Source: a virus. Taken from it: a DNA stretch of 64,000 nt. The notes below the pieces were generated by a model that worked only from the letters and a program-made list of their open reading frames with translations, did not search any database and was not told the DNA's origin. The stretch covers positions 58,177-122,176 of IMG/VR virus record IMGVR_UViG_3300042862_000198. One strand, written 5' to 3'. The position numbers and the translations under genes are program-made. Position 1 is the stretch's first letter, and every line of letters begins with the position of its first letter. This document shows positions 36,464 to 53,527 of the stretch, piece after piece.

Positions 36464-39400
36464 ATGAAAGTTACTTGTGCACTTACTCAATCTCAAGTTG
36501 AGAAATTATATGCTAATGTTTATGGTCACATGCTCAACCAAGGGGAAGCATTTGATGCTAAACAATACATGACAGATCTTTTTAATAAGATTGCAAAAAA
36601 TAAGGATGTAGATACTGCAGCTAAGTTTTTGCAACAAGTACCATCTTTGATTGGTACTGCTTCATTTAGACCTAGCATAGAAGAGTTTGAGATAAGCACA
36701 GACATGCTTAGACCGTTGATTAAACAATTTAAGAAAGATGACAATGGTCTTATTAATGCCGTTACTTATTTTAATCCAACTTTAAATCCAGAAGTTAAAA
36801 AAGAACTAGTTGAAAAAAAAGCTAATGAAGCTTTTGAAATAAAAGAAACTTCTTCAGATTCAATTACTGTTGATCCCTTTAATTATCAACCATATTCAGC
36901 ATTATCTACTACATTCCAAGAATTTATTTCTAAAGATCCTAATAAAGATATTGAAACAGAAACCTTAGATCAAGGTAGAAGAACTATCTATACTACATTA
37001 AGTGCTATTAGAGAGAATGCAAATAACAATACTCCATTAAAAGAACTTATTTATCAAGACACAGTATTAAAGTTAAAGCCTATTAAGCTTTCTGATATAA
37101 ATCCTGAGTTATTAGATAAGACTACATTAAGATTACTCAACCGTGCTGGATTTTTACTTGGTGCTAGAAAGGCTCAAGCAAATGTAACTACACCAGATAA
37201 GATATTCTTAATGGTTATTACAGATAATGTTGAGACTGGAAATCCATTATTCTTTGATGAGAAAGGAAATATTACTACTAAAGAACTGGGGGGCACAATA
37301 GTGTTTCAGTTTTTAAGAGAAGTAAGAAAAGAAGGTTCTAATTATAGAGTAACAGATATCTATGGTAAAAGTGATCAGATTATTGATCCGGCAATTGTAG
37401 CACAAAAAGCTGGTATTTCTTTTGAAGAAGCAGAAGCTAGACAGCAAAAGGAATTTGAAGAGCTCTATAACTTTAGACAAAAACTAATTAAAGATAACAC
37501 AGCTCCTTTAATTGATATTGTTGGAGTTAGTACAGGAGTTGGTAGTAATAAACCTCAGTCATTAAATCTTTCTAATGTAACACTTATTCTAGAAGATAAT
37601 GATGATGCTATTAGATCTCTTGATCTTGTAAAGTCACCAAGAGCTGGCTTAATAGAAGGTCAAGGTATAATTACTATTAAAGGTGAAGAAATTAAAGTAG
37701 ATAGACCAAACCTTACTGAAGATATTGCTAGAAAGATTGCTGCAGTATTGACTAATAAGAAGATGACTAATAAGGAGAAGTATTTATTTGTAACTCAATT
37801 CTTGGCAGATAATGTTTCTCCTGCAACAAGAAAACATGATTTAGTATATTTAGAAAATACAGATACACTTATATATAAGTATTCACCTACAACTTTTCAA
37901 CAAGGTTATAGTGAAATGATTACTGTAAACTTAGATGCTCCTAAAGCAGCTGATGTTATTTCTAAATCATTGATGGAAGCTTCTGGTAAAGATGGTAAAT
38001 TCTATCCAGCTAAAATGACTTATAATAAAGTGTTACTTGATGCTAATCTTTATCAAGATTATGATCTTCAGACCAATACATTAAATGATGACTACTCTGA
38101 CTATATTGAATTATTAAAAGGATTACCAAATACAAAAATCTTTTTAGATGTAACTCAAGAAAGTAAAGCTTTTAATAGTTATATGGGTTTTGCAATTCCT
38201 AATCAGTTCACAGAACAATTAGCTAAAGCTCAAGAGAGTACAGAAAATTTAGTTACAGATGATTTATTTGAAACATTATCTGAACCTGAAGATGTTGCAC
38301 CAGTACTTGGTGTTAGAGAAACTAGAGAAAAAATTATTAGTGTTTTAGAAAGTGGTAAACAAGTTAAAGGAACAATATCAAAACCATTTGGTGCAATAAC
38401 TAAATGGCATATAACAACTCCAAAAGGAAATATTATTGAGTTCTATAATAAAGAAAATAATATTACTGCTGAAGACATTGCAACTGAAGTTAGTTTAAAT
38501 CTAGTTCCAGAAGCTGAGTTTAATGGTAAAAAGTTTACTAATGTTATTGAAGTAAAAGCAGGTGATAAGTTACTTGGTTATGTAAGAGAAACTGAAGACT
38601 TTGATGCTCCAAAAACTGCAGCACCAACAAAGACTGTAGAAGAAATTGAAGCAGAGATTAATGAAACACTTGATCCTAAAGGTGTTGGTAAACCTGAAGA
38701 AGGTGGAGCAGCAGATATATTTTTCTATAGAAAAGGTGAATTACCATCAGATGTATCTGAAGAACAAATAGCAGATGCAAAAACATGGTGGGCTAACTCT
38801 CCATTAAATAAACATATTGGATTCAGAGAAGTAGCTAATATAGTTAACTCAGATGCATTTGCAAGATTTACAGCTTATGGTGCCACTCTTAATGGTAATC
38901 TGGGTATGATTGATCTTGCAGCAAAGGGTTCTATGGTAGATGTATATCATGAAGCATGGCATGGATTTTCTCAATTATACCTAAGTAGGGCTGAGAAAAA
39001 AGCTTTGTATAGAGAGGTACAGAAGAAGCTTGGAACTAAGGCTGACTTCTTTGAAATAGAGGAGATGCTTGCTGAAGACTTCCGTGAGTATGTAAGAACA
39101 GGAAAGGTTAAAGCTAACTCTCCAAAAAGAAATAGCTTATTTAGAAAAATCTTAAACTTTCTTAGAGAACTCTTTGGAAAAGGTTCAGTAACAAATACTA
39201 CAGATATTAAAGCTGTCAAAGAGTTATTTGATAACTTATATCTTGGAAAAGGTTTAAACATCTACACGCCATCTATTGACAATGTAATGTTTGATGTGTT
39301 ATATAGAAATAGTGGTGTTGTTAAACCGGGAACAGAGACTGACCAGGTTCTTAATAGACAAGATTCTAATCTACTTAAAGATAGTATGGATTCAATCATC

Positions 39401-42400
39401 TCTGAAATCATTGATGATCAAGTTCCTTCTAAAGTAATAAAATCAGGTACCTTAAGTATTCTATTAGATTCAAGAAATAGAGAGCCCTTATATAAGCTGA
39501 TAAAAATTAAATTACAAGATAAGTTAGACAACACTACTAAACAACTTGAGGCTACAGAAGACACTAAAGAAAATGAATTTAAGAAAGAGCTTTTAGAAAA
39601 TAGAATAAGAATTCTCAAAGCTGGTTTAGATAACTACGGAGATACTAAAAATGGTTTAATTAAATACCATGTAGATAATAGTACCTATGATTTAATGAGA
39701 CAGAAATATACTGCTCTTGAATTAGATGAAGAAGGTAACTTAATGGAGCCTGTAAATCTTGAGAATACAGAAAGATATGGTGACAAGAAAGATGGCCAGA
39801 AATCACTAATAGAACTAGCAGGTAAAGAGACTCTTTATATTTTAAAAAGTTTACATGAAGGTAAGCTTAATAAAAATACTAATAAAATTGAGTATCAATA
39901 TAATGAACTTGGTTTTAAAAAACTTGCAGACTTTAGAACTACTTGGAATAACACAGTAAGAGCTATTGGTGGTATTCAAGATGCTCAAGAACAGTATGAT
40001 AAGTTAGTTGAAGAATCAAAAACAAATGCTCAGATTAAACAACTTGTTGATACTAAGATAGCTAATCCAGAAAATTCAACTAATCAATATGAGTTTCAAG
40101 CTACTTCAGCTATTTGGCAAGACTTTAGTAAATCAAGAATACCTTATATTCAGTTAACAGTATTTAAAACTAAAATAGGAGAAAAAGAAGTACCTGATGG
40201 ATACTATGGTACAAAAATGATAGATGTATTTGAATATAGTACTGCAGTAACTGATGCATCTAATGATGTATTTAATGTTATAAGAAAATTTCAAGAAAAT
40301 TTTAAAGCTTCTACAACTAATTTATATGTAGATAGAATTGGAAGAGATAATATTCCAACTTTAAATTTACAAAAAGTTGTAGATGCTTTTGGAATAAATG
40401 GTAAATTAGATACTTCTAATTCTTTTGCATTTGCAAGAGCAATTGGTTTTTATTTAGATGACATAGCTATAATTAAAAATACACTTAAAAAAGATACTAA
40501 AACTATTGAGCAATTTGGTCTACCCTATATTTATGATATTGTTAAAAGATTAAATGACAAGTCTAAATTAGAAAATACTAATAGCACTGTAAAAACAGTT
40601 ATTGCTAAATTTAAAAATGATCCCATACAAACTCTTATGGATGGTATACCAGAAAATATAATTGGTACTACTAGAGAAGGTCAAAAAAATAAGATAAAAG
40701 AAATTGCAACTCTTCAAAGTAAATATGGATTAGAAGCATCTACTGGTATGGTTCTTAATGCAGAAAGAAACTTAGTGTCTGAATTTATTGAGAACAATAC
40801 TATAAGCAAACAGGTATATGCATTAAACAATGCTACTAAACTTTCTGATCTATGGACAACTGATAAGTTTCAACATATGTCTTATCTTGATCCGGCAACT
40901 AATCCTTACACAAAAAGATTAGCTACCATTAGAACTTTGTATGAATTAAGTTCTCCTGAACAAAAAAGAAGAGCAAATAGATCCTTAAAATTATTTATGG
41001 ATTCTGGAACTCAAATTGAAGGAGAAGATACTGGTTTAAATACAACATCCTTAGATGTTAACGGTAAATTTCTTCAAGAAATTAATACTATGCTTAAAGA
41101 TGGTGTTCAAGAATTTATGAGACATGCATCTAAGTCATCTTCATTTGGTGCTAAGATAGAAGGTGGAGTAATTGGATTACCAGGTAAAGAAGGTAGTGAT
41201 GGTCATCTTTGGATTGATGTTAAAATGTTTACAGATAACACAGCCTATGACTATGGATTTAAGGCTCACATGTTACCTTATATGGAAGCAGAAGCTGAGA
41301 GAATCTTTAAGTTTAGACAAAACAAAACTGAGTATTCAAAATATGCTGGATACAATAGAGACTTGGGTAATGGTCTTATGGCTGGAGAAGTATTTACTGC
41401 ATTTGATAATGTACTTACTAAGAGCTCAAAAGAACAAATATATAAAGCTATTGATAAAGCTATTGCAGAAAAAAAGAATTTTAATCTTACAGAATTTCTT
41501 AGAAATGATGATACAGGTTTATTAAATACTGTTAGAGATAATGTAAGAAATTATTTTAAAGATCAAACTAAAATAAATACTGGCTTACTTACTAATGCTA
41601 ATTTTATTAGTAAGGATTTGATTAAAAAAATGAGTGACTTAGGTGTTGCAGAAAATCAAATTGAAGATAAACTTGTTGAAACTTATACCTATAATTCTTG
41701 GGTTCAGAACTTTGAAATGGCTGTATTATTTTATGGTGATATGTCTCAGTACAATCATGATAAAGAAGAATTACATAAAAGAAATACTGGATCAACTTCA
41801 GGTGGTAGAGGATTTAGAACTGACATTGCCGCTAGAAACTTTGTGAAAGATTTCTTAGCTAAAACATCTTATGCTAAAAAAGATGGTATGCCAACAATAG
41901 CATATGATGGTACATACAATACAGCTATTATTCAAGATGTAAAAAGAACTTCAGAGTATTTAGGACAAATTGAAGCAGGTCTTAGAAAAGATTATGAAAG
42001 AAGATATAAAGAAGCAGGTGTTAAGAATGCAAAAGCTGAAATAGACATTAGGGTTGAAAAGGAAATAAGTAAATATAAAGGTATAGAAGAGGCTGATGGT
42101 CAAGGTTTTATAACTTTCGATGCATATAGAACTTTAAGATACCTTGAAAATAATTGGTCAAATGAGCAAGAGATTCTTTTCCAAAGAATTTTAAGAGGAG
42201 AAGAAGTAAATGCATCTGACATAACAGAAATGTTTCCTGTATATAAAGTTCAGAACTTTGGTGCATTAGCTAATACTAAACTTCCAGTAACAGCTATGCA
42301 TAAATTTGCATTAGCTCCATTAATTCCTTCAGTGATTGAAGGGTCAGATCTTCAGTCTTTGCATAGACAAATGATGGAAGATAATATTCAGTATGTATCA

Positions 42401-45400
42401 TTTCAAACTGGTTCTAAAGTAGGTAGTGAAACTTCTACAGTTAATGAAGAAGGTGAAGCAGTAGCAGATGAAATCTATGAGCCTAAGTCTGATCAAAAAG
42501 TTTTAAAGAAAAACATCAAATTTACAAAGAATACTATTTATCTTGAGAATCTTAAAAATGTAACATCTGTTCCGAATAAGTATAAAAACAAAACTGTATT
42601 TTCAACTCAGTTAAGAAAACTTATTTTGGGTGGTTTATACCGTAATGGTAAAATTATTAATTCTAATAATAAAGCAGTTATTAACGCTTATGAAAAAGCT
42701 GTAGATAATTATACTGAAGTTTTAAAACTAGAACTATTACATGAGATTGGTTATGAAGAAAATAAAGAGACTGGTAAATATACCGGAAACTTAAAAGATT
42801 TCTTAAATGTAGTACAAAAACAATTAGGTGATAAAAATGTACCTGAACATCTTATAGAGATGGTGGGTCTTAATAGAGACAACTCTATAAAAACAGATTT
42901 ATCATTACACTTAATGGCTGATGAAATTGAAGCTATCTTAGTTGCATTAGTAGAGAAAAGACTTATTAAACAAAAAGTAAAAGGAGAAGCATTAGTTCAA
43001 GTAGCTAGTTCTATTTCTAATGGACTATGGGATAACAATCTTAAGAAAGGTACTAAAGCAGATATACTAAAGTTTATGGGTACTAATAATCTTCCTTTTT
43101 ATAACAATGACACAGCTGATGGTAAAACATTAGCTATGAAAGTTGCTATAGCATTACAAGGAGACTTTGTTAATTTACTTAAACTTAATCATTTAGATGG
43201 CCAACCTATTGGGACAAGAGCTAGATTAAATGATATGATTAAAGAAGATTCTTGGTTAGATCTAAATGATAATAGAAAGTCTGTTACTTTATCTGCAGTT
43301 AGGATTCCAGTACAAGGATTAAACTCTATGGAGTTTATGGAAGTATATGAGTTCTTAGATCCGGCAGCTGGAAATATTATTATTCCTCCAACTGAGATTG
43401 TAGCTAAATCAGGAACTGACTATGACGTAGATAAGTTAACCACATTTATGCCTACAATTGATACTAAAGGTAACTTTGTTAAAACAGGTATTACTAATGA
43501 TGAATTATTAGCTAAAGTAAATAGATTAGCTGCTACACCAGAAGGTTCAAAAACAGCAACTAACTTAATTAAAATTCAAAAGGCTGCTCTAGAGAATGAA
43601 TTAATATCAACTATTAAAGGTATTCTTGAGTTACCAGATAACTATGCAGGTTTAGTTAGACCAAATGATACTTATTTATTAAAAGATGATATTGCTGATA
43701 AGATTGAGAATGATGTTGTTGAATACAATAGATTTCAGAACATGCATAAAGAATCTGAAAGAATTGGTAAGAAAGGTGAAAAAGTAATTAGCCCTACTAG
43801 AACTCTAGAAGTATCTTATAACTTACACAAGCATGAAGTAAATATGGTTGGTAAAAGAGTACTTGGTTTAATTGCTATTGAAAATGCATTACATCCAGTA
43901 CTTAATTCTATTGGAGCTTCATTACCTGCTACTTATCAAAATCCTGTTTTTGATGAGGCCTTACAAAGAAATGTTGATAGTAAAAAGACTAATAAAACAA
44001 GATTACTATTACCACATAACAAAATAAATGGTAATGTCTCTCTATCTGGTACTGATACAGCAGATGGCTTAGATAATATTGGTGACTTATTTTCACAAAT
44101 GATGAATGGTGCAGTGGATGTTGAGAAAAATCCATGGATATTCTTTATACAAGGTAACTATGAGATAGCACCAATGATTACATTCTTACTTAAAGCAGGT
44201 GTTCCAAAAGAACATGCTATTATGTTTGTATCAAATCCTCTTGTAAGAGAATATGCTAAACAACAAAGAATAATTAAAGGTGCTTATGCTAAAATGATAG
44301 GTAAAATTGATGAAAACTTTCCTGAAACTATGAGTAAATATCAAGCTGCTGTAAATGCACTTGAGACAGTAGGTATTAAAAAAGCTGGTAGCTTAGTTAG
44401 TGCTAAAGGATATTATAAGGCTGCCGTTGATGCTACATCTAAATCTGGAATATTAAATGATGCTCTTGAGTTTGACATTAAAATGATGAGCAAACTTGTT
44501 AAGAATCCTAATGCTCCAGAATTAAAAAATCATGCAGTAGCAATGTTCTTACATTTCTTAGAACTTGAAAAATCTACCCGTGGATATACATCTTTAAAAT
44601 TTATGTCTAATCCAGATACTAAAACTTCTAAAACTTTACAAGAGATAATAAGAAGAAACTTATCTATTGAAGATGCTAAATCAATGTCAACAATAGAAGA
44701 GGGTACTGTTGAAAAAATGATGGATTCTATCTTAGGTTCTTTTTATGATAATAAACTTATTGGTGACTTAATAGTTCCACTATTTCCATTAAGAAATAAT
44801 GATACTGTAACAGATTATATTGTTAAAACTATCCAGTTAAAACAAAATATAATTACTAGAACTTTTGGAAGAGGTCATGATGGTACAAGAAGATTCATTA
44901 CAGAATTTAAAAATGCTATACCTAATTATATCTATCAAAATTACATGTCTAATTTTATAGATGAAAATGGTAATATAACTTCAATGCCTGATAACTTTAA
45001 AGAGTTTCCTGTTAAAGAAAAAGCTGGTGTTAAAAATGGTGCACAAATAATTAATGGTACACTATATATTGATAAGACAAGATTATCTAATGAGTATAGT
45101 AAAAAATTATACTTAAGAGATAATACAGATGCTGCTAGTTATACTAAACAAGGATTGAGAGGTTTTGGAAATGTAGAAAAATTGTTCCCTAATGAATCTA
45201 CATATTTTAAATATGTATTTGAGAGAGAACTTCAAAGAAATCTTTATTCAATGAAATCACTTGAAACTAATAAAGATTATTTAAAAATCAACTCAATAAT
45301 CAAAGATCCTGCACAATCTTATGAAGCATATATTAATCAGAGAGCATTAATTAATGCATTTAATAGAGAAACTATTATGACATTAGATGGCCAATCTTAT

Positions 45401-47650
45401 ACAGATATGGTTTTAAATATGGTAGAAGAATTTTCAGAACTTAAAAATAAGTATCCTATTTTAACCCAATTTACAATACCAAAGGTTAAAACTGGTGAAC
45501 GTGTGCTAAGTTTAAATGATACTAAATCATTAAAGGATGCACAGTTAGCTGAAATTTATTTCCAAAATTTAGAAGATCTTGGAAATGAAGATATTAAAAA
45601 AGTAATAGATCCTGAAGATAATAAGAGAATAAGTAAACTATTTGCTTTATTACCACAAATGATGATGTATCAACATGGTATTGGTTATAGTAAGTATGGC
45701 TTTACAAGAGCATTACCTTATGAAGGATTCATAGGAGTAATGCAAACAGCTTCTGAAATATTTATAAATAAACAACTTAAAGAAGATACACTAGCTGTTA
45801 TCTTTGATAAGTTAGTTGAGCCCGGTAACAAAGTATTTAAAAACTTATTAGTTACACCTAAGCAATATCTTGCTCCAGAACCTTCTGTAGTTAAAGAAGA
45901 AGATGAATTTATGTCTGAAGAAGAAGCAGCAGCTATGCTTGAAAAAATGGGTATTAAGCCTATTGGAGAAGAACCTACTCAACCATCTACTAGTGTTAAA
46001 ACAGAAGTAGTAATTCCAGGTGTTGAAATTAAAAGAAATGCTATAACTAAAGAAGAACAACTTGAGTTATTTAATATTCTTAAACCTTATATTGAGCAAC
46101 AAGGAGCTAAAACCAATAAAGCTACTAGTGCAAATGTAATGATTGGTTTAGGTTTAAGATGGGATTATAAATCAAATAACCCTAATTATAAATCTATTGA
46201 AATAAAAAATATTATTGTACCTGGAAGTAGTGCTAAGTATGGCTACTATGAAGTATCTATTAATGGTCAACCATTAGGTCCTATTAATCCTAGAATTAAA
46301 ACATTAATGTCTAAAGCTACTGGTATAGATGCTACTGATTATGATGGAGCTATAATAAATCTTTATACAGATAAAACTTTTATAAGTGCTCATAATGATG
46401 TAGATGAAGCTGCTGATGCTATTGGATATCCTGTACTTGTTTTAAATATAGGTGGAAGTGGTAATTTTAGTGTACAACAAACTGGAAAATATGAACCTAC
46501 TCCTCTTAATTCTGGAGACTCATATGTTTTTGGAATAAATGGAGAAAACAGAAAAGTAATGCATAGAACTTTTCCTTCTAAACAAGATGGATTTTTACCT
46601 GCAATAACTACAGCAATAGATGGAGAAACTTATTCAGAAGGAAGTTATAGATTATCTATTACTTTAAGAAGAGTAAAAAATCTAGAACCAGGAATGCCTA
46701 CAGTACCAGCTAAGATTACTACTCAACCATCTACTAGTGTTAAAGAAGGCGTTCCAGAATTATTTGAATCCAATCCTGAATTAGCTGATCAAGTATATGA
46801 AGCTTTAGAGTTTCAAAATAAACAAGAACTAGAAAATCTTAAAAAAGAATTTTCTTCTTTTTCTAATATTAGAGATAAGTTTAAAGGAGATTTAAAAAAT
46901 GTAAAAAATTTAGTATCTAGTTTTACTCAAATGTCAGCAGATGCAAATTTTTATAAACCTTTTGCTACTGATATATCAGAACAAAGAAAAAAAGAAATAA
47001 TTTCTGGAAACGCAACTTCATATATTTTTGAAGATAATTTTGATGATTATAGAAAAACTATAAAAAAATCTTTAGATGATGAATTAAAATCTGAAGCTGA
47101 TAGATTTAATTATTGGTTTGAAAGAGGTGATACATACTATTATTTTGATACAGAAAATAAAAAATATTATTCTGTTACATCAAGTATGAAAAATGAAGAT
47201 GGTATTGAAATTACAAAGAAAGAATATTATGATGCTTTAGATGATTATAAGGATGCATTAGAAAAGAAAAATTTACAAGACCAAGAAGATGTAAAAGAAA
47301 ATGTATTAAGACAACCTTTCTTAGAAGGAAGAACAGTAAGACTTTTTGATAATCATTTTGTAATTGTAACAAAGCATGTTATAAAAGAAAAAGGAGATTT
47401 ATTCATAAATGAAATAGAATTTATGTATTATGATGAATTTAATTATGATAGATTAAAGGAATTAGAAAAACAAAAAATAACTCCACTACAAAAACAACAA
47501 GCTCAACAAAAGTTTCAAGAATATGTTGATGCTACTGGTAAACAAGATATAGAAGGATTTAAAAAGTTTGTTACTCAACCACCTACAGATAATCTTAATG
47601 CACCAGATGGATTACCAGGAATACCAAGAACATCAACTGATTGTCAATAA
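36464..47650 (+). CDS. Virion-packaged single-chain RNA polymerase (crAss/phi14:2 gp66-like) with N-terminal zincin and C-terminal AlkB-like domains
   Basis: Catalytic SGTDYDVDKL (DxDxD at 43418-43432), upstream RIPVQGLNSM, DGQGFIT, HKFALAPL; zincin HEAWH (38948-38962)...EEMLAE; AlkB-like HND...H...RLSITLR. Confidence 0.88.
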   Translation: MKVTCALTQSQVEKLYANVYGHMLNQGEAFDAKQYMTDLFNKIAKNKDVDTAAKFLQQVPSLIGTASFRPSIEEFEISTDMLRPLIKQFKKDDNGLINAVTYFNPTLNPEVKKELVEKKANEAFEIKETSSDSITVDPFNYQPYSALSTTFQEFISKDPNKDIETETLDQGRRTIYTTLSAIRENANNNTPLKELIYQDTVLKLKPIKLSDINPELLDKTTLRLLNRAGFLLGARKAQANVTTPDKIFLMVITDNVETGNPLFFDEKGNITTKELGGTIVFQFLREVRKEGSNYRVTDIYGKSDQIIDPAIVAQKAGISFEEAEARQQKEFEELYNFRQKLIKDNTAPLIDIVGVSTGVGSNKPQSLNLSNVTLILEDNDDAIRSLDLVKSPRAGLIEGQGIITIKGEEIKVDRPNLTEDIARKIAAVLTNKKMTNKEKYLFVTQFLADNVSPATRKHDLVYLENTDTLIYKYSPTTFQQGYSEMITVNLDAPKAADVISKSLMEASGKDGKFYPAKMTYNKVLLDANLYQDYDLQTNTLNDDYSDYIELLKGLPNTKIFLDVTQESKAFNSYMGFAIPNQFTEQLAKAQESTENLVTDDLFETLSEPEDVAPVLGVRETREKIISVLESGKQVKGTISKPFGAITKWHITTPKGNIIEFYNKENNITAEDIATEVSLNLVPEAEFNGKKFTNVIEVKAGDKLLGYVRETEDFDAPKTAAPTKTVEEIEAEINETLDPKGVGKPEEGGAADIFFYRKGELPSDVSEEQIADAKTWWANSPLNKHIGFREVANIVNSDAFARFTAYGATLNGNLGMIDLAAKGSMVDVYHEAWHGFSQLYLSRAEKKALYREVQKKLGTKADFFEIEEMLAEDFREYVRTGKVKANSPKRNSLFRKILNFLRELFGKGSVTNTTDIKAVKELFDNLYLGKGLNIYTPSIDNVMFDVLYRNSGVVKPGTETDQVLNRQDSNLLKDSMDSIISEIIDDQVPSKVIKSGTLSILLDSRNREPLYKLIKIKLQDKLDNTTKQLEATEDTKENEFKKELLENRIRILKAGLDNYGDTKNGLIKYHVDNSTYDLMRQKYTALELDEEGNLMEPVNLENTERYGDKKDGQKSLIELAGKETLYILKSLHEGKLNKNTNKIEYQYNELGFKKLADFRTTWNNTVRAIGGIQDAQEQYDKLVEESKTNAQIKQLVDTKIANPENSTNQYEFQATSAIWQDFSKSRIPYIQLTVFKTKIGEKEVPDGYYGTKMIDVFEYSTAVTDASNDVFNVIRKFQENFKASTTNLYVDRIGRDNIPTLNLQKVVDAFGINGKLDTSNSFAFARAIGFYLDDIAIIKNTLKKDTKTIEQFGLPYIYDIVKRLNDKSKLENTNSTVKTVIAKFKNDPIQTLMDGIPENIIGTTREGQKNKIKEIATLQSKYGLEASTGMVLNAERNLVSEFIENNTISKQVYALNNATKLSDLWTTDKFQHMSYLDPATNPYTKRLATIRTLYELSSPEQKRRANRSLKLFMDSGTQIEGEDTGLNTTSLDVNGKFLQEINTMLKDGVQEFMRHASKSSSFGAKIEGGVIGLPGKEGSDGHLWIDVKMFTDNTAYDYGFKAHMLPYMEAEAERIFKFRQNKTEYSKYAGYNRDLGNGLMAGEVFTAFDNVLTKSSKEQIYKAIDKAIAEKKNFNLTEFLRNDDTGLLNTVRDNVRNYFKDQTKINTGLLTNANFISKDLIKKMSDLGVAENQIEDKLVETYTYNSWVQNFEMAVLFYGDMSQYNHDKEELHKRNTGSTSGGRGFRTDIAARNFVKDFLAKTSYAKKDGMPTIAYDGTYNTAIIQDVKRTSEYLGQIEAGLRKDYERRYKEAGVKNAKAEIDIRVEKEISKYKGIEEADGQGFITFDAYRTLRYLENNWSNEQEILFQRILRGEEVNASDITEMFPVYKVQNFGALANTKLPVTAMHKFALAPLIPSVIEGSDLQSLHRQMMEDNIQYVSFQTGSKVGSETSTVNEEGEAVADEIYEPKSDQKVLKKNIKFTKNTIYLENLKNVTSVPNKYKNKTVFSTQLRKLILGGLYRNGKIINSNNKAVINAYEKAVDNYTEVLKLELLHEIGYEENKETGKYTGNLKDFLNVVQKQLGDKNVPEHLIEMVGLNRDNSIKTDLSLHLMADEIEAILVALVEKRLIKQKVKGEALVQVASSISNGLWDNNLKKGTKADILKFMGTNNLPFYNNDTADGKTLAMKVAIALQGDFVNLLKLNHLDGQPIGTRARLNDMIKEDSWLDLNDNRKSVTLSAVRIPVQGLNSMEFMEVYEFLDPAAGNIIIPPTEIVAKSGTDYDVDKLTTFMPTIDTKGNFVKTGITNDELLAKVNRLAATPEGSKTATNLIKIQKAALENELISTIKGILELPDNYAGLVRPNDTYLLKDDIADKIENDVVEYNRFQNMHKESERIGKKGEKVISPTRTLEVSYNLHKHEVNMVGKRVLGLIAIENALHPVLNSIGASLPATYQNPVFDEALQRNVDSKKTNKTRLLLPHNKINGNVSLSGTDTADGLDNIGDLFSQMMNGAVDVEKNPWIFFIQGNYEIAPMITFLLKAGVPKEHAIMFVSNPLVREYAKQQRIIKGAYAKMIGKIDENFPETMSKYQAAVNALETVGIKKAGSLVSAKGYYKAAVDATSKSGILNDALEFDIKMMSKLVKNPNAPELKNHAVAMFLHFLELEKSTRGYTSLKFMSNPDTKTSKTLQEIIRRNLSIEDAKSMSTIEEGTVEKMMDSILGSFYDNKLIGDLIVPLFPLRNNDTVTDYIVKTIQLKQNIITRTFGRGHDGTRRFITEFKNAIPNYIYQNYMSNFIDENGNITSMPDNFKEFPVKEKAGVKNGAQIINGTLYIDKTRLSNEYSKKLYLRDNTDAASYTKQGLRGFGNVEKLFPNESTYFKYVFERELQRNLYSMKSLETNKDYLKINSIIKDPAQSYEAYINQRALINAFNRETIMTLDGQSYTDMVLNMVEEFSELKNKYPILTQFTIPKVKTGERVLSLNDTKSLKDAQLAEIYFQNLEDLGNEDIKKVIDPEDNKRISKLFALLPQMMMYQHGIGYSKYGFTRALPYEGFIGVMQTASEIFINKQLKEDTLAVIFDKLVEPGNKVFKNLLVTPKQYLAPEPSVVKEEDEFMSEEEAAAMLEKMGIKPIGEEPTQPSTSVKTEVVIPGVEIKRNAITKEEQLELFNILKPYIEQQGAKTNKATSANVMIGLGLRWDYKSNNPNYKSIEIKNIIVPGSSAKYGYYEVSINGQPLGPINPRIKTLMSKATGIDATDYDGAIINLYTDKTFISAHNDVDEAADAIGYPVLVLNIGGSGNFSVQQTGKYEPTPLNSGDSYVFGINGENRKVMHRTFPSKQDGFLPAITTAIDGETYSEGSYRLSITLRRVKNLEPGMPTVPAKITTQPSTSVKEGVPELFESNPELADQVYEALEFQNKQELENLKKEFSSFSNIRDKFKGDLKNVKNLVSSFTQMSADANFYKPFATDISEQRKKEIISGNATSYIFEDNFDDYRKTIKKSLDDELKSEADRFNYWFERGDTYYYFDTENKKYYSVTSSMKNEDGIEITKKEYYDALDDYKDALEKKNLQDQEDVKENVLRQPFLEGRTVRLFDNHFVIVTKHVIKEKGDLFINEIEFMYYDEFNYDRLKELEKQKITPLQKQQAQQKFQEYVDATGKQDIEGFKKFVTQPPTDNLNAPDGLPGIPRTSTDCQ
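45975..46000 (+). repeat. 26-bp direct repeat, copy 1 (encodes TQPSTSVK)
   Basis: CTACTCAACCATCTACTAGTGTTAAA, identical to 46719-46744. Confidence 0.95.
46719..46744 (+). repeat. 26-bp direct repeat, copy 2; degenerate third copy at 47572-47586
   Basis: Identical to 45975-46000 and 744 nt (248 codons) downstream; third copy TACTCAACCACCTAC encodes TQPPT. Confidence 0.95.
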
Positions 47651-47677
47651 AATTTATTATCTTTAAATAAAAGTATT

Positions 47678-50600
47678 ATGCCTTGTGTAATTAAATTAAA
47701 AGAATTCTTAACTGATCAGATTTATGAGAAATCTAAACCTGCATTAAGCATGTCATATCAAAATGCTATAAGACTAACAGATACTATAAATAAAGAATAT
47801 GGCTACAATGTTGTATACCCTACATTAAGTGATACAATTGAGCTTGAAATAACAATTCCGGAAGCTTTAATAACTGATTATTATAATAATGAGCTTAAAC
47901 TAGAAATACAAGAAGCTATTGAGGTTGCTCAAGCAGCTGAAGAAGAAGCTAGAGAAATACAAAGAAGAGATGCAGAACGTGCAGGTATTCCATATCAAGA
48001 TGATTATCTATTTCAAAATGAAAATGATATTCAAGTGATTGTTGAAAAAACATTTAGAGAAGCAAGAGATCAAGAAATTGCTACTAAGCTAGGTGAAAAA
48101 TATAAAAAAGCTTTTGGAATAGAATATCAAATAGTAACCCCAGGTGAAGCTGCTTTAATCTTACAATTAAGTCCTACACCATATACATCAGATGTATCTG
48201 CTTTCTTTTATGGAAATCAAGTATATTTTGTAAAGGGTAACTTTAATGCTAAAACTGTAGTCCATGAATTTGCTCACCCTTTAATTAAAGGTATTGCATT
48301 TCAAAATCCTAAATTATTTAATAATTTATATGCTCAGTTATCTAGTTCTGTAACAGGACAAGAAGCAATTGAAAGAGTTAAAAGTAAGTATCCTGAATTA
48401 GAAGTTGATTCAGAAAGATTTAAAGAAGAAGCTATTGTTACTGCTATGGAAATAGATGCAGAATTAAAGTTAGAAAAAATTAAATCTGATGATAGCTTGT
48501 TTGATAAGTTTATAGAAACATTAATGTTTGCTATTAAAAAAGTTATTCAAGCTCTCACAAAGAATGTTAATCTTAAAAAGTTAAGCACACGTACTACCAG
48601 AGACCAGCTTGTTGACATGATGATCAATGAAGACTTTGTAATTCAAGATTTAAATTATCAAACAAGTTTATTTGCTGAGTTTAGTAAAGAAACTGATGCA
48701 TATTTAAAAGAACTTAAAGCTCTTGCTCCTGAAAAAATACTAAATACAATAAATAGATTTCATGATGAAATGTCTTTTCAGTTACAAGAATTAAGAACAA
48801 ATCCAAAAAAACTTAGAGAAACATTAGGAAAAGATGCTGAACAAACTATCCGTGGTATAAGAGACTATGTTAATGGATATAAAACTACTGGTGAAAACAT
48901 TTCAGATGATGAGTTACAAACTCTTATAGATTCATTAATTAATGATGAAGCTGATTTAAATGCCAGATCATTAGCTTTCATAAAAAGTTTAACAGAACTT
49001 AATGTATTTGCAAGAAGAGTTCAAAGAGTTCTTGAAGATATGAATACTTCAAAAGAATATTTAACTGAAGAAGGTAATCAAAAGATTCAGTACTTTAAGC
49101 AGTTCATGGAAAGAGAGATTAAATTTCTTAGAGATGTAGAAAAACAATTAGGAATGGATCCTTCAAATGAATTAAGTAAATTAATATTGTCTGTAAAGTC
49201 ATTAATGGAACGTAATTCTGAAACAGCTAAAGATATGACATTTAAATATGTCAAAGATTTACTTTTAGATGCAGGTCTTACTATGCAAGAAAATGTAAAA
49301 GAAAAAACTTCTGATAGAATTGATGAAATTTTAAAAACTGATGGTTTTACAGAAGCTGAAATAAATGATTTTAAAGAAGATTTATTTAATAGATTAGATG
49401 TAGATAACATTAGAGCTATATCAGCAAAAGACTTTAAGTTACCAAGAGAATCTCCTAGAGCTAAATACATTTTAGAAGCAATTCAAGAGTATAATAATAA
49501 TAAAATTACTGAGCAGGTTGTTGATGAATATTTAAGGGGTCATGTAAAAGATCTTGGATTTACAGGAGCTATGTTAAACCCATTAGCTAATGTTAATGAT
49601 TTATTTGGTGCCTTTGTACAGTATGCAAGAAATAAAATTTCAGATGCTGAAGTAAAAAGTGAGCAAGAACAAATGAAGTTTGTTGAAAGTTTAAAACCTA
49701 TTTTAAATGCAATGAATTGGAATCCTAATGATACACAACAATTAGGAAAAGCATTATTATTTGTAGATAAGAAAGGTATCATTAATGAAGATGGTGATGT
49801 TGAAGAATATGAAGCTTATGCATATTTAGATAAATTTAAAGATTGGGAACTTGATGAAGCCAACTTAAAAGGAGCCCTTAAAAAAGCTCAACTTAAAGGT
49901 GACAAGGAAGCAATTAAAGTTGCTATGCAGGCAATAAGAGATTTTGATAGAGACTATAAAGTTAGAAGGTATACAGATGAAGTATATAAGCTACAAGATA
50001 TATGGCTTCAAAGTAATACTGTGATAGATCCTACTACTAAAAAAACTGTTACTATATCTGCAGATGTGTCATTAGAAGCTTATCAAGAAAGAAAGGCTGC
50101 ATTAGATGACTTAAGTACTTATTCTGATTCAAATGAATTTACTTCACTTGATGACTTATTAGAATTTACTCCATCAGCAGCATCAAAAGTAAAGTATAAT
50201 AATCTTTATAATTTATATGATAATAATGGAAATTATAAACAAGGAATAGAATTAGAAAAAGTTTTAGTTAGAAGATACTATAGACAACAATCAAGACAAT
50301 TCTACGAGTCTGTTCCAGTTTTAGATAAATTTCAAAGAGATTATGAGCACTTTGTTAATACTGAACTTGCAAGTTTAGGTATTACTAAAGATGCTACACC
50401 TGATAAATATGAAGCAGAAATTAAAAAGTTTTTTGAAAAAAATACAAGAATAGCTTACACAGATGAATACTTTCAAGATAAAAATGATGTTCTTGCTGAG
50501 ATAAATGCTATTAATGAAAAAGCAAAAGGAGCAGAAATATCTAAAAAGCTTGCTAGTCTTTATGAACAAAGATATACTATTACAAATAGAGTAACAGATA

Positions 50601-53527
50601 AAGATGGAGAACCAAATGGAACTGAACTTGGAATTGACTCTATCAGAAAACTTAAAGCTATTGAAGAAGAAATAGTACTTCTTTCTGAAAGCTTTGATAA
50701 AAAAACTGGTTTATCAAAAACTGAAGCTTATAAGCTTAGGTATTATGAAGAAAAAATAATTGGTGCAGGAAAAGCATCTCAAATGACCCAAGAACAAAAG
50801 AATGAGTATCAGTCACTTGTAGCTAATAGAACAGCCTTTGGTTTATCAGATCAAGAAATTACATACTTAAGAGGTTTATTCAAAAAATTAGCAGAGTTAA
50901 CAGATAATGTTGCTACTGATTATTATGTTGATTCATTTAATACAGCACTAGGAGAACTTGAATTAGAACCTATTACAATTGATACTGCAGATGATTGGAT
51001 TAATTCACAAAATACTCTTCAAGCAAAAGCAGATAATCCAAGATTTTCAGAATGGTTTGATAGAAATCATTATGAAAAAACTGTATTTAATCCTGTACTT
51101 GGAGTATATGAATCTAGATTTTTTAGAACTAAAGCTTGGACAGTTTCAAAACCTTCAAATCCTAAGTATTTTAAAAAGACAGAACTTATAGATCCTATCA
51201 CTGGTGAAAAGATAACCATTGATGGTGTTCCAATTGCAAAATATTCTTATACTAAAATTAAAGATAAGTATAAAACAGGCTTTAATGCTAAGACAGGTAA
51301 AGTTGAGTTAGAAGTTGGTACTCATATTGATAACCGTGGAAACTTTTTACCTAAAGAACAAGCTTTAGGAAGTACTTTTGGAAAGTATATGAATGAAAGG
51401 TACTATGAAATGAAAAAAACTAATAGTCCTGAGTTTAAATTACTAGAAGCTATTAAAAAACAAAGACTTAAAAATCAAGAAGATAGTCCTTATGCATCTA
51501 GAATGTATTTAGATTTTCCTAGATTTAGAATAGCTACTACTCTTGAATATGGTCAATCTGGTGAATTAAAAAATAAAACAGTAGCTATTGGAGATGCATT
51601 AAAAGCTTCAGTATATAAAAGAGCTGCAGATGATGCGGAATCTGGTCAAGCAAATTTTGATCCTGAGTTTATATATGTTCCAACTGATTTACAGGGAAAA
51701 CCAATACCAAAAGTTCCAGTATCTGGTTTATATAAAATGCCAATTAATTCAGTTTCTTTAGATGTAATAACATCTGAATTAAACTACATGAATTCTTTAG
51801 ATATACAAAAAGTTTTGATTGACTCACAGTCTTCAGCTACAGCTATTCTTGATGTTCTTGGAGATCCAGATAATGCTTTAGATAAACTAGATATGGCAAG
51901 TAGTAAATTATCTAATGCTCAAGATAAAACAGCAGTGTTTTTAAAAAGAGATACTAATCAAAGATACCAGTTTGCTAAAGATGTTATTAATAGAATGTGG
52001 TATGGAGAAAAGGTAAGTGAATTTCAACAAGAAAACCCTACTATATCTAAGATAACAAGAAAAGCAATGGGAGCTGCAAGTTTTGCATTCTATGCTTTAA
52101 ATCCTGTTTCTACTATTAAGAATAAAGGAGGAATGACATTTCAAAAACTTATAAAAACTGCAGGTGGAAAATATATTAATTTTCCTGCAATGGCAAGAGG
52201 AGAAATTAGAACTTATAAAGCTATGTTTGATTATGCTACATCAGGAACATATACAACAGGTTTAAAAAGTTTAGATATGCAGTTAATGGATGCATTTGAT
52301 ATGTCTCCAGGTAAGACTAAAAAAGATGCAAAAAGAACTCATACAAATACAGCAGTTAAAAATTTATTAGATGCTACTTGGATGTTTTCTGATAGAAAAT
52401 TAACAGAGGTACAAGGGGCACTTGAATTAGGCTTTGGTTTAATGGAATGGCAAGAAGTTGATCAAATACAACCTGATGGTTCAGTTACAAAAATTAGATA
52501 TGCAGATGCCTTTGTAATAGGTGAAGATGGTATTGCAAAAATAAAAGATGGTATTAATCCTGAATGGGGAATGAACTATACTGATCATACTGTAGTTGCG
52601 GGAGATACCTTAGCATCAATTGCTAAACAATATCATATGACTGTTGAAGAGTTAGCAAAGAAAAATAAAATAGAAACAAATGCTAAATTAGAAGATGGTA
52701 AAGAACTTATTATATCTAGAAATACTAAGTTTAATATGATGAAGCTTAGAATGTCAAGTACTAATAAAAAATTAAATGGTAGTGTTGCAGCAATTGAAGG
52801 TCCTACTGCAGAAAAACATTTACTATATGATGTAGCATCATTCTCAAGAAAGTTTGGTACAGGTATGTTTTTATCTAGATTCCAAATGGATACTTCAAAA
52901 GGTAACCGTGGTGGAGCTGTATGGGATTGGGATTTAAATGAAACTACTAAAGGTAAGTATATTACATTTGCACAGAATATGACTAAATTACTCACAGATG
53001 CTAAAAACTATTGGCCAATAATGAAAGAAGAAGAAAAAATTGCTATGCGTGAAATTTTTACAGAAGGTATGTTAATATTCATATCAGGTGTGGCAATATC
53101 TTTATTATTTGGATTCAAAGGAGATGATGAAGATAGATTTCAAAAGTTAAAAGAAAGAGAGGCAAAATATGGTACAGCAGGTTGGGTTGCAAATCATATG
53201 CTTTATCAAATTATCATGGTACAAAAAGAAAATACTAGTATGACTCCATTAGGAGCAGGTGAATGGTTAGACTTTACCAAAACAACTAACATTATGATGG
53301 GGCCTACATTAGATCTTTATCTTAAGATTTTTAAAGACTTAGGATACATAATTTCAGGAAATGATAAAGCTGTTTACAAACAAGAAGTTGGTCCATATGG
53401 ATGGCAACAAGAAGGTGAGTATAAAATATGGAATCACTTAGGTAGCATAGTTGGATTATCAGGTAAGAATTTAAGTCCTTATTGGGCTATTAAGAAGCAA
53501 GAAATATTTACAAACTTGAAAGGGTAG
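47678..53527 (+). CDS. Giant ejection/cargo protein with zincin (HExxH) domain, LysM domain and C-terminal hydrophobic helix
   Basis: VVHEFAH (HEFAH at 48263-48277)...EEAIV; LysM HTVVAGDTLASIAKQYHMTVEELAKKNKI...LEDGKELII (52586-52714); MLIFISGVAISLLFGF. Confidence 0.75.
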   Translation: MPCVIKLKEFLTDQIYEKSKPALSMSYQNAIRLTDTINKEYGYNVVYPTLSDTIELEITIPEALITDYYNNELKLEIQEAIEVAQAAEEEAREIQRRDAERAGIPYQDDYLFQNENDIQVIVEKTFREARDQEIATKLGEKYKKAFGIEYQIVTPGEAALILQLSPTPYTSDVSAFFYGNQVYFVKGNFNAKTVVHEFAHPLIKGIAFQNPKLFNNLYAQLSSSVTGQEAIERVKSKYPELEVDSERFKEEAIVTAMEIDAELKLEKIKSDDSLFDKFIETLMFAIKKVIQALTKNVNLKKLSTRTTRDQLVDMMINEDFVIQDLNYQTSLFAEFSKETDAYLKELKALAPEKILNTINRFHDEMSFQLQELRTNPKKLRETLGKDAEQTIRGIRDYVNGYKTTGENISDDELQTLIDSLINDEADLNARSLAFIKSLTELNVFARRVQRVLEDMNTSKEYLTEEGNQKIQYFKQFMEREIKFLRDVEKQLGMDPSNELSKLILSVKSLMERNSETAKDMTFKYVKDLLLDAGLTMQENVKEKTSDRIDEILKTDGFTEAEINDFKEDLFNRLDVDNIRAISAKDFKLPRESPRAKYILEAIQEYNNNKITEQVVDEYLRGHVKDLGFTGAMLNPLANVNDLFGAFVQYARNKISDAEVKSEQEQMKFVESLKPILNAMNWNPNDTQQLGKALLFVDKKGIINEDGDVEEYEAYAYLDKFKDWELDEANLKGALKKAQLKGDKEAIKVAMQAIRDFDRDYKVRRYTDEVYKLQDIWLQSNTVIDPTTKKTVTISADVSLEAYQERKAALDDLSTYSDSNEFTSLDDLLEFTPSAASKVKYNNLYNLYDNNGNYKQGIELEKVLVRRYYRQQSRQFYESVPVLDKFQRDYEHFVNTELASLGITKDATPDKYEAEIKKFFEKNTRIAYTDEYFQDKNDVLAEINAINEKAKGAEISKKLASLYEQRYTITNRVTDKDGEPNGTELGIDSIRKLKAIEEEIVLLSESFDKKTGLSKTEAYKLRYYEEKIIGAGKASQMTQEQKNEYQSLVANRTAFGLSDQEITYLRGLFKKLAELTDNVATDYYVDSFNTALGELELEPITIDTADDWINSQNTLQAKADNPRFSEWFDRNHYEKTVFNPVLGVYESRFFRTKAWTVSKPSNPKYFKKTELIDPITGEKITIDGVPIAKYSYTKIKDKYKTGFNAKTGKVELEVGTHIDNRGNFLPKEQALGSTFGKYMNERYYEMKKTNSPEFKLLEAIKKQRLKNQEDSPYASRMYLDFPRFRIATTLEYGQSGELKNKTVAIGDALKASVYKRAADDAESGQANFDPEFIYVPTDLQGKPIPKVPVSGLYKMPINSVSLDVITSELNYMNSLDIQKVLIDSQSSATAILDVLGDPDNALDKLDMASSKLSNAQDKTAVFLKRDTNQRYQFAKDVINRMWYGEKVSEFQQENPTISKITRKAMGAASFAFYALNPVSTIKNKGGMTFQKLIKTAGGKYINFPAMARGEIRTYKAMFDYATSGTYTTGLKSLDMQLMDAFDMSPGKTKKDAKRTHTNTAVKNLLDATWMFSDRKLTEVQGALELGFGLMEWQEVDQIQPDGSVTKIRYADAFVIGEDGIAKIKDGINPEWGMNYTDHTVVAGDTLASIAKQYHMTVEELAKKNKIETNAKLEDGKELIISRNTKFNMMKLRMSSTNKKLNGSVAAIEGPTAEKHLLYDVASFSRKFGTGMFLSRFQMDTSKGNRGGAVWDWDLNETTKGKYITFAQNMTKLLTDAKNYWPIMKEEEKIAMREIFTEGMLIFISGVAISLLFGFKGDDEDRFQKLKEREAKYGTAGWVANHMLYQIIMVQKENTSMTPLGAGEWLDFTKTTNIMMGPTLDLYLKIFKDLGYIISGNDKAVYKQEVGPYGWQQEGEYKIWNHLGSIVGLSGKNLSPYWAIKKQEIFTNLKG

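Follow-up and report, generated by a model that had tools for sequence, protein, structure and literature searches.

The 64,000-nucleotide (nt) stretch of viral DNA analyzed in this work, here termed the window, corresponds to positions 58,177 to 122,176 of the 122,176-bp IMG/VR record IMGVR_UViG_3300042862_000198 and was found to carry a giant open reading frame (ORF) in which a module resembling the AlkB dioxygenases is enclosed by two copies of a short in-frame repeat. The ORF (36464..47650, + strand) encodes 3728 aa and includes a region with a zincin motif, a two-barrel RNA polymerase (RNAP), a C-terminal array of modules and a conserved tail. The repeat, CTACTCAACCATCTACTAGTGTTAAA, is 26 nt long, and its copies at 45975-46000 and 46719-46744 are 100% identical, lie 744 nt (248 codons) apart and are both in frame, each encoding the peptide TQPSTSVK preceded by P or T (aa 3172-3179 and 3420-3427). 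These copies, referred to below as linkers 1 and 2, each contain a 21-nt core found throughout the lineage (45977-45997 and 46721-46741). A sequence-only reading of the window had proposed that the repeats bound an AlkB-like cassette inside a virion RNA polymerase gene, and the repeats and the motifs that it quoted (IINLY, HNDVDE, H3367 and YRLSITLRR, the last including R3396 and R3402) were all found to be present. The 26-nt repeat is not a chance occurrence, since the longest exact direct repeat in 50 Markov-1 random sequences of 64 kb reached only 15-19 nt. Exact repeats of at least 20 nt form only four groups in the window, the other three of which link two paralogous genes.

Ahead of linker 1, an acidic connector leading from the core of the protein to the module slot (SVVKEEDEFMSEEEAAAMLEKMGIKPIGEE, 45884..45974, +) is common to the closest relatives, P0002-P0004, up to the first linker. 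The AlkB-like 2-oxoglutarate (2OG)/Fe(II) dioxygenase module occupies 46001..46718 (+; aa 3180-3418) and is followed, after linker 2, by a second module, here designated Y (46745..47572, +; aa 3428-3703). Module Y is bounded on its other side by a third, degenerate copy of the repeat family, linker 3 (ACTCAACCACCTAC, 47573..47586, +; peptide TQPPT, in the context VTQPPTD at nt 47564-47586), 25 residues ahead of the stop. The ORF ends in a conserved C-terminal tail, ...NAPDGLPGIPRTSTDCQ (47587..47647, +), which includes Cys3727 (nt 47642-47644).

The module between linkers 1 and 2 is about 240 aa long and matches the Pfam family 2OG-FeII_Oxy_2 (PF13532) at aa 3187-3402, with E 1.8e-12 and 48.4 bits when the whole protein is the query and with 54.1 bits when the module is taken alone (cut-off 31.2); the match covers profile positions 2-194 of 194. 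Its AlphaFold2 (AF2) model (pLDDT 93.2, pTM 0.92) displays a double-stranded beta-helix with the AlkB-type N-terminal extension, and a Foldseek search of the PDB with this model returned E. coli AlkB chains in all of the top 15 rows (best 3khb_B, E 2.5e-12, TMt 0.76), with TMt values of 0.72-0.78 across 234-245 columns; these rows are followed by ALKBH1, 2, 3, 6 and 8. A profile built from the phage modules also finds AlkB by sequence (E 3e-9), H-N-D-V-D-E of the phage module being aligned to H-Q-D-K-D-E of AlkB. In an alignment of 20 modules drawn from the window, IMG/VR loci and database proteins, the putative Fe triad, consisting of H3310 and D3312 (nt 46391-46399) and H3367 (46562-46564), is invariant in 20 of 20 and aligns to HQD...H of AlkB. 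Of the RxxxTxR motif (R3396, T3400 and R3402, 46649-46669), T3400 and R3402 are invariant in the 20 modules, whereas some subtypes have another residue in place of the first Arg. The N..Y pair that goes with this 2OG-binding motif is likewise retained, N121 in at least 90% of modules and Y123 in all, in a module numbering in which H132, D134, H189, T222 and R224 stand for H3310, D3312, H3367, T3400 and R3402, respectively. The earlier assignment to the AlkB-like dioxygenases was thereby upheld, and the module, as judged from sequence and modeled fold, is an AlkB-type 2OG/Fe(II) dioxygenase that displays all of the family features which computation can address. With E. coli AlkB and the ALKBH proteins it has in common the fold, the Fe(II) triad, the 2OG-binding arginines and the aligned H-x-D-x-D-E; it differs from E. 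coli AlkB in that identity is only 17-19% and in its setting, AlkB being a free repair enzyme and the phage module a part of a virion polyprotein.

When 1.84 billion representative proteins were searched exhaustively with phmmer, only 210 matched the module. Among the best 150 of these, 55 are at least 2000 aa long, and 40 of the 55 also match a profile of the RNAP region; the motif G-x-D-[FY]-D-x-D is displayed by 11 of the other 15. Most matches shorter than 450 aa are fragments that begin inside the domain or end in the Cys-containing tail of the family. A separate search for homologues of similar length, as candidates for a free-standing AlkB, gave 21 matches, which look mostly like pieces of giant proteins, judging by their short contigs and, where aligned, their Cys-ending tails. 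A tblastn search of the module against the deposited-phage collection gave no match, and PHROGs holds no family for either the giant protein or the module. Comparison of the sequences places the phage module in a separate clade within the AlkB family.

The protein that carries the module was identified by its fold. Its central region (aa 1741-2720; 41684..44623, +) was modeled by AF2 with 33 homologues (pLDDT 84.7, pTM 0.82), and the best Foldseek match of the model was 6vr4_A, the RNAP of phage phi14:2 (E 1.9e-30, TMq 0.66, 1067 columns), with QDE-1 next at E about 4e-4; the match to 6VR4 was judged on the overall fold, the two double-psi beta-barrels being taken together. The DxDxD metal-binding motif, DYDVD (aa 2319-2323; 43418..43432, +), is the only one in the protein, and D2319, D2321 and D2323 are invariant in 16 and in 33 homologues. 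A tblastn search of the RNAP region against the 'phages' collection matched 85 records, among them g066 of phi14:2, 'Catalytic RNA polymerase subunit', at E 2e-12; the names of these records are those of Bacteroides, 'uncultured', Flavobacterium and Cellulophaga phages, crAssphage and Kehishuvirus. The RNAP identity came from the fold search because neither the full-length protein, used with phmmer, nor a profile of 16 core sequences gave a match against PDB sequences; blastn of 44500-48500 against the 'phages' collection gave none either. Further upstream, HEAWH (aa 829-833; 38948..38962, +) is a zincin-type HExxH motif in the gp65-like part of the polyprotein, all five residues, H829, E830, A831, W832 and H833, being invariant in 16 cores; the region had no Pfam match at E up to 0.1. 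These comparisons identify the 3728-aa ORF as a crAss-like virion RNAP polyprotein, so that the module lies inside a virion RNA polymerase gene, as had been proposed.

According to passages of a preprint by Drobysheva et al. (2020), gp65 (a zincin-like protease), gp66 and gp67 of phi14:2 are virion proteins, and some phages fuse the three into a single polyprotein for which cleavage is suspected. The window ORF looks like a gp65+gp66-type fusion. The likeness to gp66 of phi14:2 (PDB 6VR4) lies in the two-barrel fold and the DxDxD motif; identity is 17%, and the window has instead the zincin motif and the RNAP in one ORF, followed by a variable module array that goes unmentioned in the available parts of Drobysheva et al. 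(2020) and Yutin et al. (2021). By homology to gp66 and from the literature, the polyprotein is probably packaged in the virion and delivered into the host; its gene closes a block of large structural genes, after which comes a divergent replication block (DNA polymerase, exonuclease, ATPase), a position noted alongside the putative virion delivery. In CrAssphage cr113_1 (NC_055896.1, 703-13689) the gene of the RNAP polyprotein, 4328 codons long, is annotated 'DprA-like DNA recombination-mediator protein' and has TAG in frame 73 times, with TAA and TGA both absent, in agreement with the TAG reassignment described for some crAss-like phages in the part of Yutin et al. (2021) that deals with it.

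With the whole protein as query, 303 homologues were retrieved, 2050-6524 aa in length, in which about 85% of the query, the core, is conserved. The sequence C-terminal of a common anchor near aa 3140, here called the tail, is variable: 164 distinct tails range from 11 to 2056 aa (median 424), 17 of them being shorter than 100 aa. Counting that of the window, 27 of the 164 have an AlkB-like module, located anywhere from tail position 9 to 890. P0002-P0004, whose cores are 95-97% identical, have the same connector to the first linker and the same last 25 residues with other modules between them; the slot of P0002 holds an unnamed module and an ART-PolyVal module, and P0003 and P0004 carry further different modules. 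In P0005, P0006 and P0008 (cores 79-82% identical) the tails are module-free and only 72-74 aa long. The swappable payload slot that the sequence-only reading had foreseen is supported by this distribution, in which close relatives hold other modules or none; the domain is variable, and the linker is widely reused.

Pfam analysis of 51 tails disclosed 18 families, with 2OG-FeII_Oxy_2 in nine tails, DUF7831 in six, a RecD/PIF1-type helicase and NADAR in four each, cpYpsA in three, Phage_30_3 in two, and RNase H, AAA_33 and Zeta_toxin-type kinase domains in one each. ART-PolyVal (PF18760) is among the precomputed Pfam domains of the homologues and is absent from the protein of the window. When the tails were cut with a loose linker pattern and the segments clustered, 210 of 228 chained into one cluster, and no count of module families was derived. 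The sole invariant column in the 51 tails is a Cys located 1-6 residues before the C-terminus; a Cys within the last 6 aa is found in 159 of the 164 distinct tails, and in the clade of the window it comes after the conserved peptide NAPDGLPGIPRTS. This terminal Cys might be a packaging or anchoring signal. The 4946-aa protein of the RefSeq phage CrAssphage cr118_1 (Crassvirales, human faeces), whose gene is annotated 'exonuclease V', contains HEAFH and GSDFDIDK; a helicase of the RecD type occupies aa 4439-4909, and a Cys lies four residues before the end. The module arrangement is therefore not confined to lake phages.

Module Y had no Pfam match and no usable Atlas match. Its first ~50 aa (EGVPELFESNPELA..., also EGVPELFESNPELADQVYEAL) match the starts, and its last ~50 aa (KITPLQKQQAQQ...IEGFKKFV) the ends, of modules in other phages, ART-PolyVal modules included; its centre (aa 3485-3625) matches none of the 164 tails. 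This suggests that module Y is a nested 'bracket' with an exchangeable interior. In a few relatives (L068, at aa 695-1164 of a 4130-aa ORF, P0215, P0221, P0226 and P0169) linkers and AlkB-like modules were seen N-terminal or upstream of the core, and the family thus has more than one payload slot.

The linker itself was compared across the family at the DNA level. Its consensus, ACTCAAYCATCTACTAGTGTT, encodes TQ(P/S)STSV. In loci retrieved through the core and not through the motif, the peptide TQ[PS]STSV occurs at 27 sites in 16 distinct giant genes, and 23 of the 27 use exactly the same seven codons, ACT CAA (C/T)CA TCT ACT AGT GTT, against an expectation of 0.2-0.4% per site from gene-wide codon usage; the first Ser is TCT and the second AGT at all 27. 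Allowing up to one mismatch, a scan for the 21-mer in the window and in 1.36 Mb of loci gave 39 sites, all of them in the giant ORF, on the + strand and in frame 0. An exact-match scan of all IMG/VR contigs found 62 stretches with 79 sites, every one in an open frame of the motif's own frame, and most of the ORFs concerned are RNAP homologues or share tail modules with them. When 74 distinct contexts of 111 nt each were compared, information content peaked across the 21 nt, was partial in the adjoining codon on either side and had dropped to background within a codon of the upstream edge and about two codons past the downstream edge, the flanks being unrelated. As a peptide, the strict linker is concentrated in the tails, with 73 occurrences in 85,729 aa against three in 558,703 aa of cores, and a single phage with an N-terminal module array accounts for all three. 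The same 21 nt are found in loci whose cores share 26-65% identity, and AlkB modules only 27-35% identical to that of the window still bear the same flanking peptide linker. From its codon usage, the linker is conserved as DNA and not only as a peptide, which we regard as the main new result. The 21-nt linker was also observed in L093, in a protein like that of ORF 30400-36459, and in L124, in one like the N-terminus of ORF 47678-53527; other virion giants of the gene block may also use the linker system.

Conservation of this kind could reflect a recombination signal kept by selection on the DNA and used for a shared exchange of cassettes among crAss-like phages with cores 26-65% identical, in which AlkB, NADAR, ART, helicases, kinases, SLOG and many unnamed modules would be traded as plug-in modules; we give this proposal an even chance. 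Alternatively, the linker may be kept for a role of the peptide, as a Ser/Thr/Pro hinge or a cleavage site of the zincin, the identical codons being due to recent descent and recombination occurring anywhere in similar flanks. The peptide is indeed Ser/Thr/Pro-rich and lies exactly between folded modules, the invariant HExxH belongs to the same polyprotein, proteolysis of fused gp65-gp66-gp67 is proposed in the parts of the literature cited above, and the linker sites are not independent samples. However, the linker is far better conserved than the AlkB modules and the cores that it accompanies, and its two serines keep TCT and AGT at every one of the 27 sites next to flanks that carry no information, so that a peptide role on its own appears unlikely. 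The cleavage site and the crossover point can be one element, in which case both readings hold; a linker peptide that is also cut by the zincin would be compatible with exchange by recombination.

Exchange of the AlkB module between distant relatives is indicated by comparison of the window with L002. Their DNA is 96.9% identical over 45968-46739 and 69.1% identical over the core segment 44546-45784, with no alignment between these two tracts or from 46739 to 47626; the tract of high identity starts at linker 1 and ends inside linker 2. At the protein level, L002 has 61% identity in the core anchor and 97% in AlkB, possesses an additional module upstream of AlkB and lacks the second module of the window. 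In P0038 and P0052, 54% core-anchor identity goes with 92% AlkB identity; conversely, P0007 has 84% identity in the core anchor and only 32% in AlkB, because it carries another AlkB subtype. Module identity is, in these alignments, uncoupled from core identity.

A natural variant was found in a 4808-nt contig of a lake run (X7) from another study of 2020, which agrees with the window past the end of AlkB and continues from 46730 directly to 47583. The joint skips 852 nt (284 codons), with 118 matching letters on its shorter side, so that AlkB is kept and module Y lost, and the crossover falls within 14-15 nt of near-identity between linkers 2 and 3. Read from its sequence, the joint reflects a crossover of linker 2 with the degenerate linker 3 that removed the second module in frame. 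Three other joints (45994->46717, 45999->46719 and 45986->47583) were not counted toward the 744-nt deletion or an empty slot, as their intervening sequence was uncertain or their sides were of ~25-40 letters at 90% likeness. The boundaries of the tract common to the window and L002, and the position of the X7 joint inside linker homology, add to the evidence against a role of the peptide alone. This population evidence consists of Logan contigs. Their summed depth in runs X15 and X20 was about 185 and 107 over the core, about 23 and 10.5 over AlkB and about 4 and 0-4 over module Y, values that were set aside because depth of contigs does not allow parts of a gene to be ranked. In several lake samples, Logan contigs over 45900-47700 (X15 and X20) break at the linkers, and several different continuations depart from linker 2, one of which codes for the start of the unnamed module known from P0002; this looks like many alternative cassettes in one lake population, which contigs cannot quantify.

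The sharp bounds of the nearly invariant linker element would also suit a dedicated homing-type endonuclease or recombinase that recognizes the 21-nt site, which has the palindrome ACTAGT inside, and inserts modules in an integron-like manner. Among the proteins of the phage are one of the HNH-endonuclease family (phrog_1314, 61231-62418) and one that resembles exonuclease VIII (phrog_412, 57728-58747). On the other hand, no integrase or recombinase was seen beside the slot, and no integrase was found in a scan of 20 complete or partial ORFs of the window, which begins past the first 58 kb of the genome; no inverted repeats or attC-like structures were found around the linkers; the genome itself has just the two linker sites (at most three mismatches) and no stored cassettes; and a crossover in 14-15 nt of near-identity is what simple homology-driven exchange predicts. 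A dedicated enzyme is therefore considered quite improbable. The exonuclease VIII-like protein may indicate a recombination system of the phage's own that could use short homology.

The explanation that we consider probable is that of a crAss-like virion RNAP polyprotein with linker-bounded effector modules, AlkB among them, that are exchanged by recombination. The slot between the conserved core and the short Cys-containing tail holds a variable array of enzyme modules, and we infer that whole modules are gained, lost or substituted when linkers recombine by homology, be it inside a single genome or between phages that infect the same cell. Any such exchange must preserve the reading frame, because the conserved tail lies downstream, and the in-frame linkers would keep the tail in frame after every exchange.

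Several points weigh against this explanation. The strict TQ[PS]S[TA]S linker is missing from 124 of the 164 distinct tails, so that the linker serves part of the family and other boundaries must work otherwise. Linker occurrences are not independent, and identical codons would also result if modules had recently spread along with their linkers. The clean 744-nt deletion from linker 1 to linker 2 that the sequence-only reading had suggested looking for was not found in Logan contigs, the in-frame join of linkers 2 and 3 being seen instead. m1A and m3C form mainly in single-stranded nucleic acid, and a repair role in a double-stranded DNA virion is not self-evident. Lastly, all relatives are metagenome assemblies, in which mis-joins at shared repeats are hard to exclude fully.

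This last point raises an alternative in which the shuffling of modules is an artefact of assemblers that join different phages wrongly at the shared linker, and the breaking of lake-run contigs at linkers agrees with it. The repeat, however, is just 21-26 nt long, below the 31-letter index words and the typical read length, and the same in-frame architecture with its Cys tail is found in IMG/VR, ENA, NCBI and Logan sources. In addition, the RefSeq gut crAss-like phage cr118_1 has a C-terminal helicase on its 4946-aa RNAP protein, and the window's own stretch is present, in near-identical sequence, in lake or freshwater metagenomes, 20 runs from as many studies, the source possibly among them. 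An assembly artefact is accordingly held to be highly improbable.

As to the function of the module, a polyprotein packaged in the virion, as homology to gp66 of phi14:2 implies, would enter the cell with the DNA. If it is delivered like gp66, AlkB would be there ahead of any phage gene expression, tethered to what is then the sole polymerase on hand. Its conserved active site is of the repair type, which suggests that bases are oxidatively freed of methyl or alkyl groups, and we infer that AlkB most likely strips such groups (of the m1A/m3C type) from single-stranded template DNA or from nascent early RNA beside the polymerase. NADAR, kinases, RNase H, helicases and ART, which alternate with AlkB, suggest a collection of enzymes that repair or erase marks on nucleic acids and of effectors for host takeover, and AlkB would be one of this set of nucleic-acid 'eraser/repair' and host-takeover payloads.

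It is also possible, if somewhat tentatively, that AlkB is a counter-defence or host-takeover effector, which erases alkylation imposed by the host on phage nucleic acid or strips host methyl or RNA marks. In other phages this slot is occupied by NADAR, ART-PolyVal, SLOG, kinase and helicase modules, and published abstracts report that NADAR reverses DNA ADP-ribosylation by DarT. The payload varies even among phages with 95-97% identical cores, which suits an arms race better than housekeeping repair, and phage AlkB-like enzymes have been suggested to reset methyl marks, in the part of Iyer et al. (2021) concerned with them. Against this, the conserved H-x-D-x-D-E and RxxxTxR are residues of the repair enzyme AlkB, and no defence system with AlkB-reversible methylation came up, none having been searched for. 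The sequence does not distinguish repair from erasure, and the payload variation is at least as compatible with counter-defence as with repair; repair of the template or of early RNA was, loosely, ranked slightly ahead of counter-defence.

Polyvalent proteins, described by Iyer et al. (2017, PMC5512222) from phages and conjugative elements, are large multidomain virion-associated proteins that combine a polymerase, a metallopeptidase and effectors. They include virion RNAPs of the N4 type that are fused to a metallopeptidase and to ART-PolyVal; recombinational variability is raised, in the accessible text of that paper, only as a possibility for one kinase system. The window protein is like them in this organization and, as in polyvalent proteins, has at least two unrelated domains in an architecture that varies among relatives: a zincin motif, an RNAP, AlkB and one unnamed module. 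Of the hallmark PolyVal domains, MPTase-PolyVal and ART-PolyVal, the latter is seen in tails of relatives and not in the window protein, whose HExxH region gave no Pfam match. It differs in its carrier, which is a two-barrel crAss-like RNAP and not an N4-like (T7-type) one, and the words 'dioxygenase', '2OG', 'NADAR', 'crAss' and 'linker' are absent from the main text of that paper. Sporadic free AlkB-like genes in jumbo phages are reported in a portion of Iyer et al. (2021), and giant multidomain proteins of the crAss transcription block are described, in a portion of Yutin et al. (2021), without these payloads. The abstract of van den Born et al. (2008, PMC2553587) describes AlkB inside the polymerase polyprotein of plant Flexiviridae replicases, sporadically acquired; these are plant RNA viruses, the enzyme is not virion-delivered, and no linker-bounded cassette array appears in the abstract. 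A literature search, limited in extent and no proof, found no account of crAss-type RNAP polyproteins as polyvalent carriers or of the linker.

Integron systems combine an integrase with structured attC/attI sites, neither of which was found in the scans described above. Polymorphic toxins such as CdiA ('VENN') and Rhs have a conserved motif ahead of a swappable C-terminal domain. The window resembles them, without being a member, in that a conserved boundary lets recombination displace the downstream domain. No secretion system, immunity gene or orphan cassette was found, and, unlike polymorphic toxins, the system of the window has several slots in series and a conserved downstream tail that forces in-frame exchange. 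Polymorphic toxins are compared with polyvalent proteins in the accessible text of Iyer et al. (2017, PMC5512222). The AlkB module is assigned to kinds already known, as a member of the AlkB family and as a payload of the polyvalent type; the in-frame cassette slots with a linker conserved at the nucleotide level are regarded as the new part.

Two further regions of the window deserve mention. The gene next to the giant ORF (47678..53527, +) encodes 1949 aa with a peptidoglycan-binding LysM domain at aa 1637-1679 (Pfam E 1.6e-9); its product may be an ejected protein working at the cell wall and is a candidate counterpart of gp67. Two large paralogous genes, at 4456-6750 and 9376-12408, have exact 20-27-nt repeats in common (around 6280/11647 and around 6315/12045). 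Their C-termini match phrog_22899 and phrog_17273, and the N-terminus of the first matches the protease family phrog_20754. They may be duplicated tail or receptor-binding proteins with swapped C-termini.

The finding extends the idea of polyvalent proteins to the two-barrel RNAPs of crAss-like phages and adds an AlkB-type demethylase to the known payloads. Enzymes that enter with the DNA would set the abilities of the phage ahead of gene expression. It also offers a concrete and testable mechanism of diversification, in which the linker stands at module boundaries, is conserved at synonymous positions and matches the breakpoints of transfer and deletion. A scan of metagenomes for the linker could yield a catalogue of candidate early-acting phage effectors, many of them without a family and pre-cut at domain boundaries. 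If the explanation is true, the linkers would be an in-frame coding counterpart of the boundary sequences postulated by the modular theory of phage evolution, and the system as a whole would be a phage analogue of integrons and polymorphic toxins.

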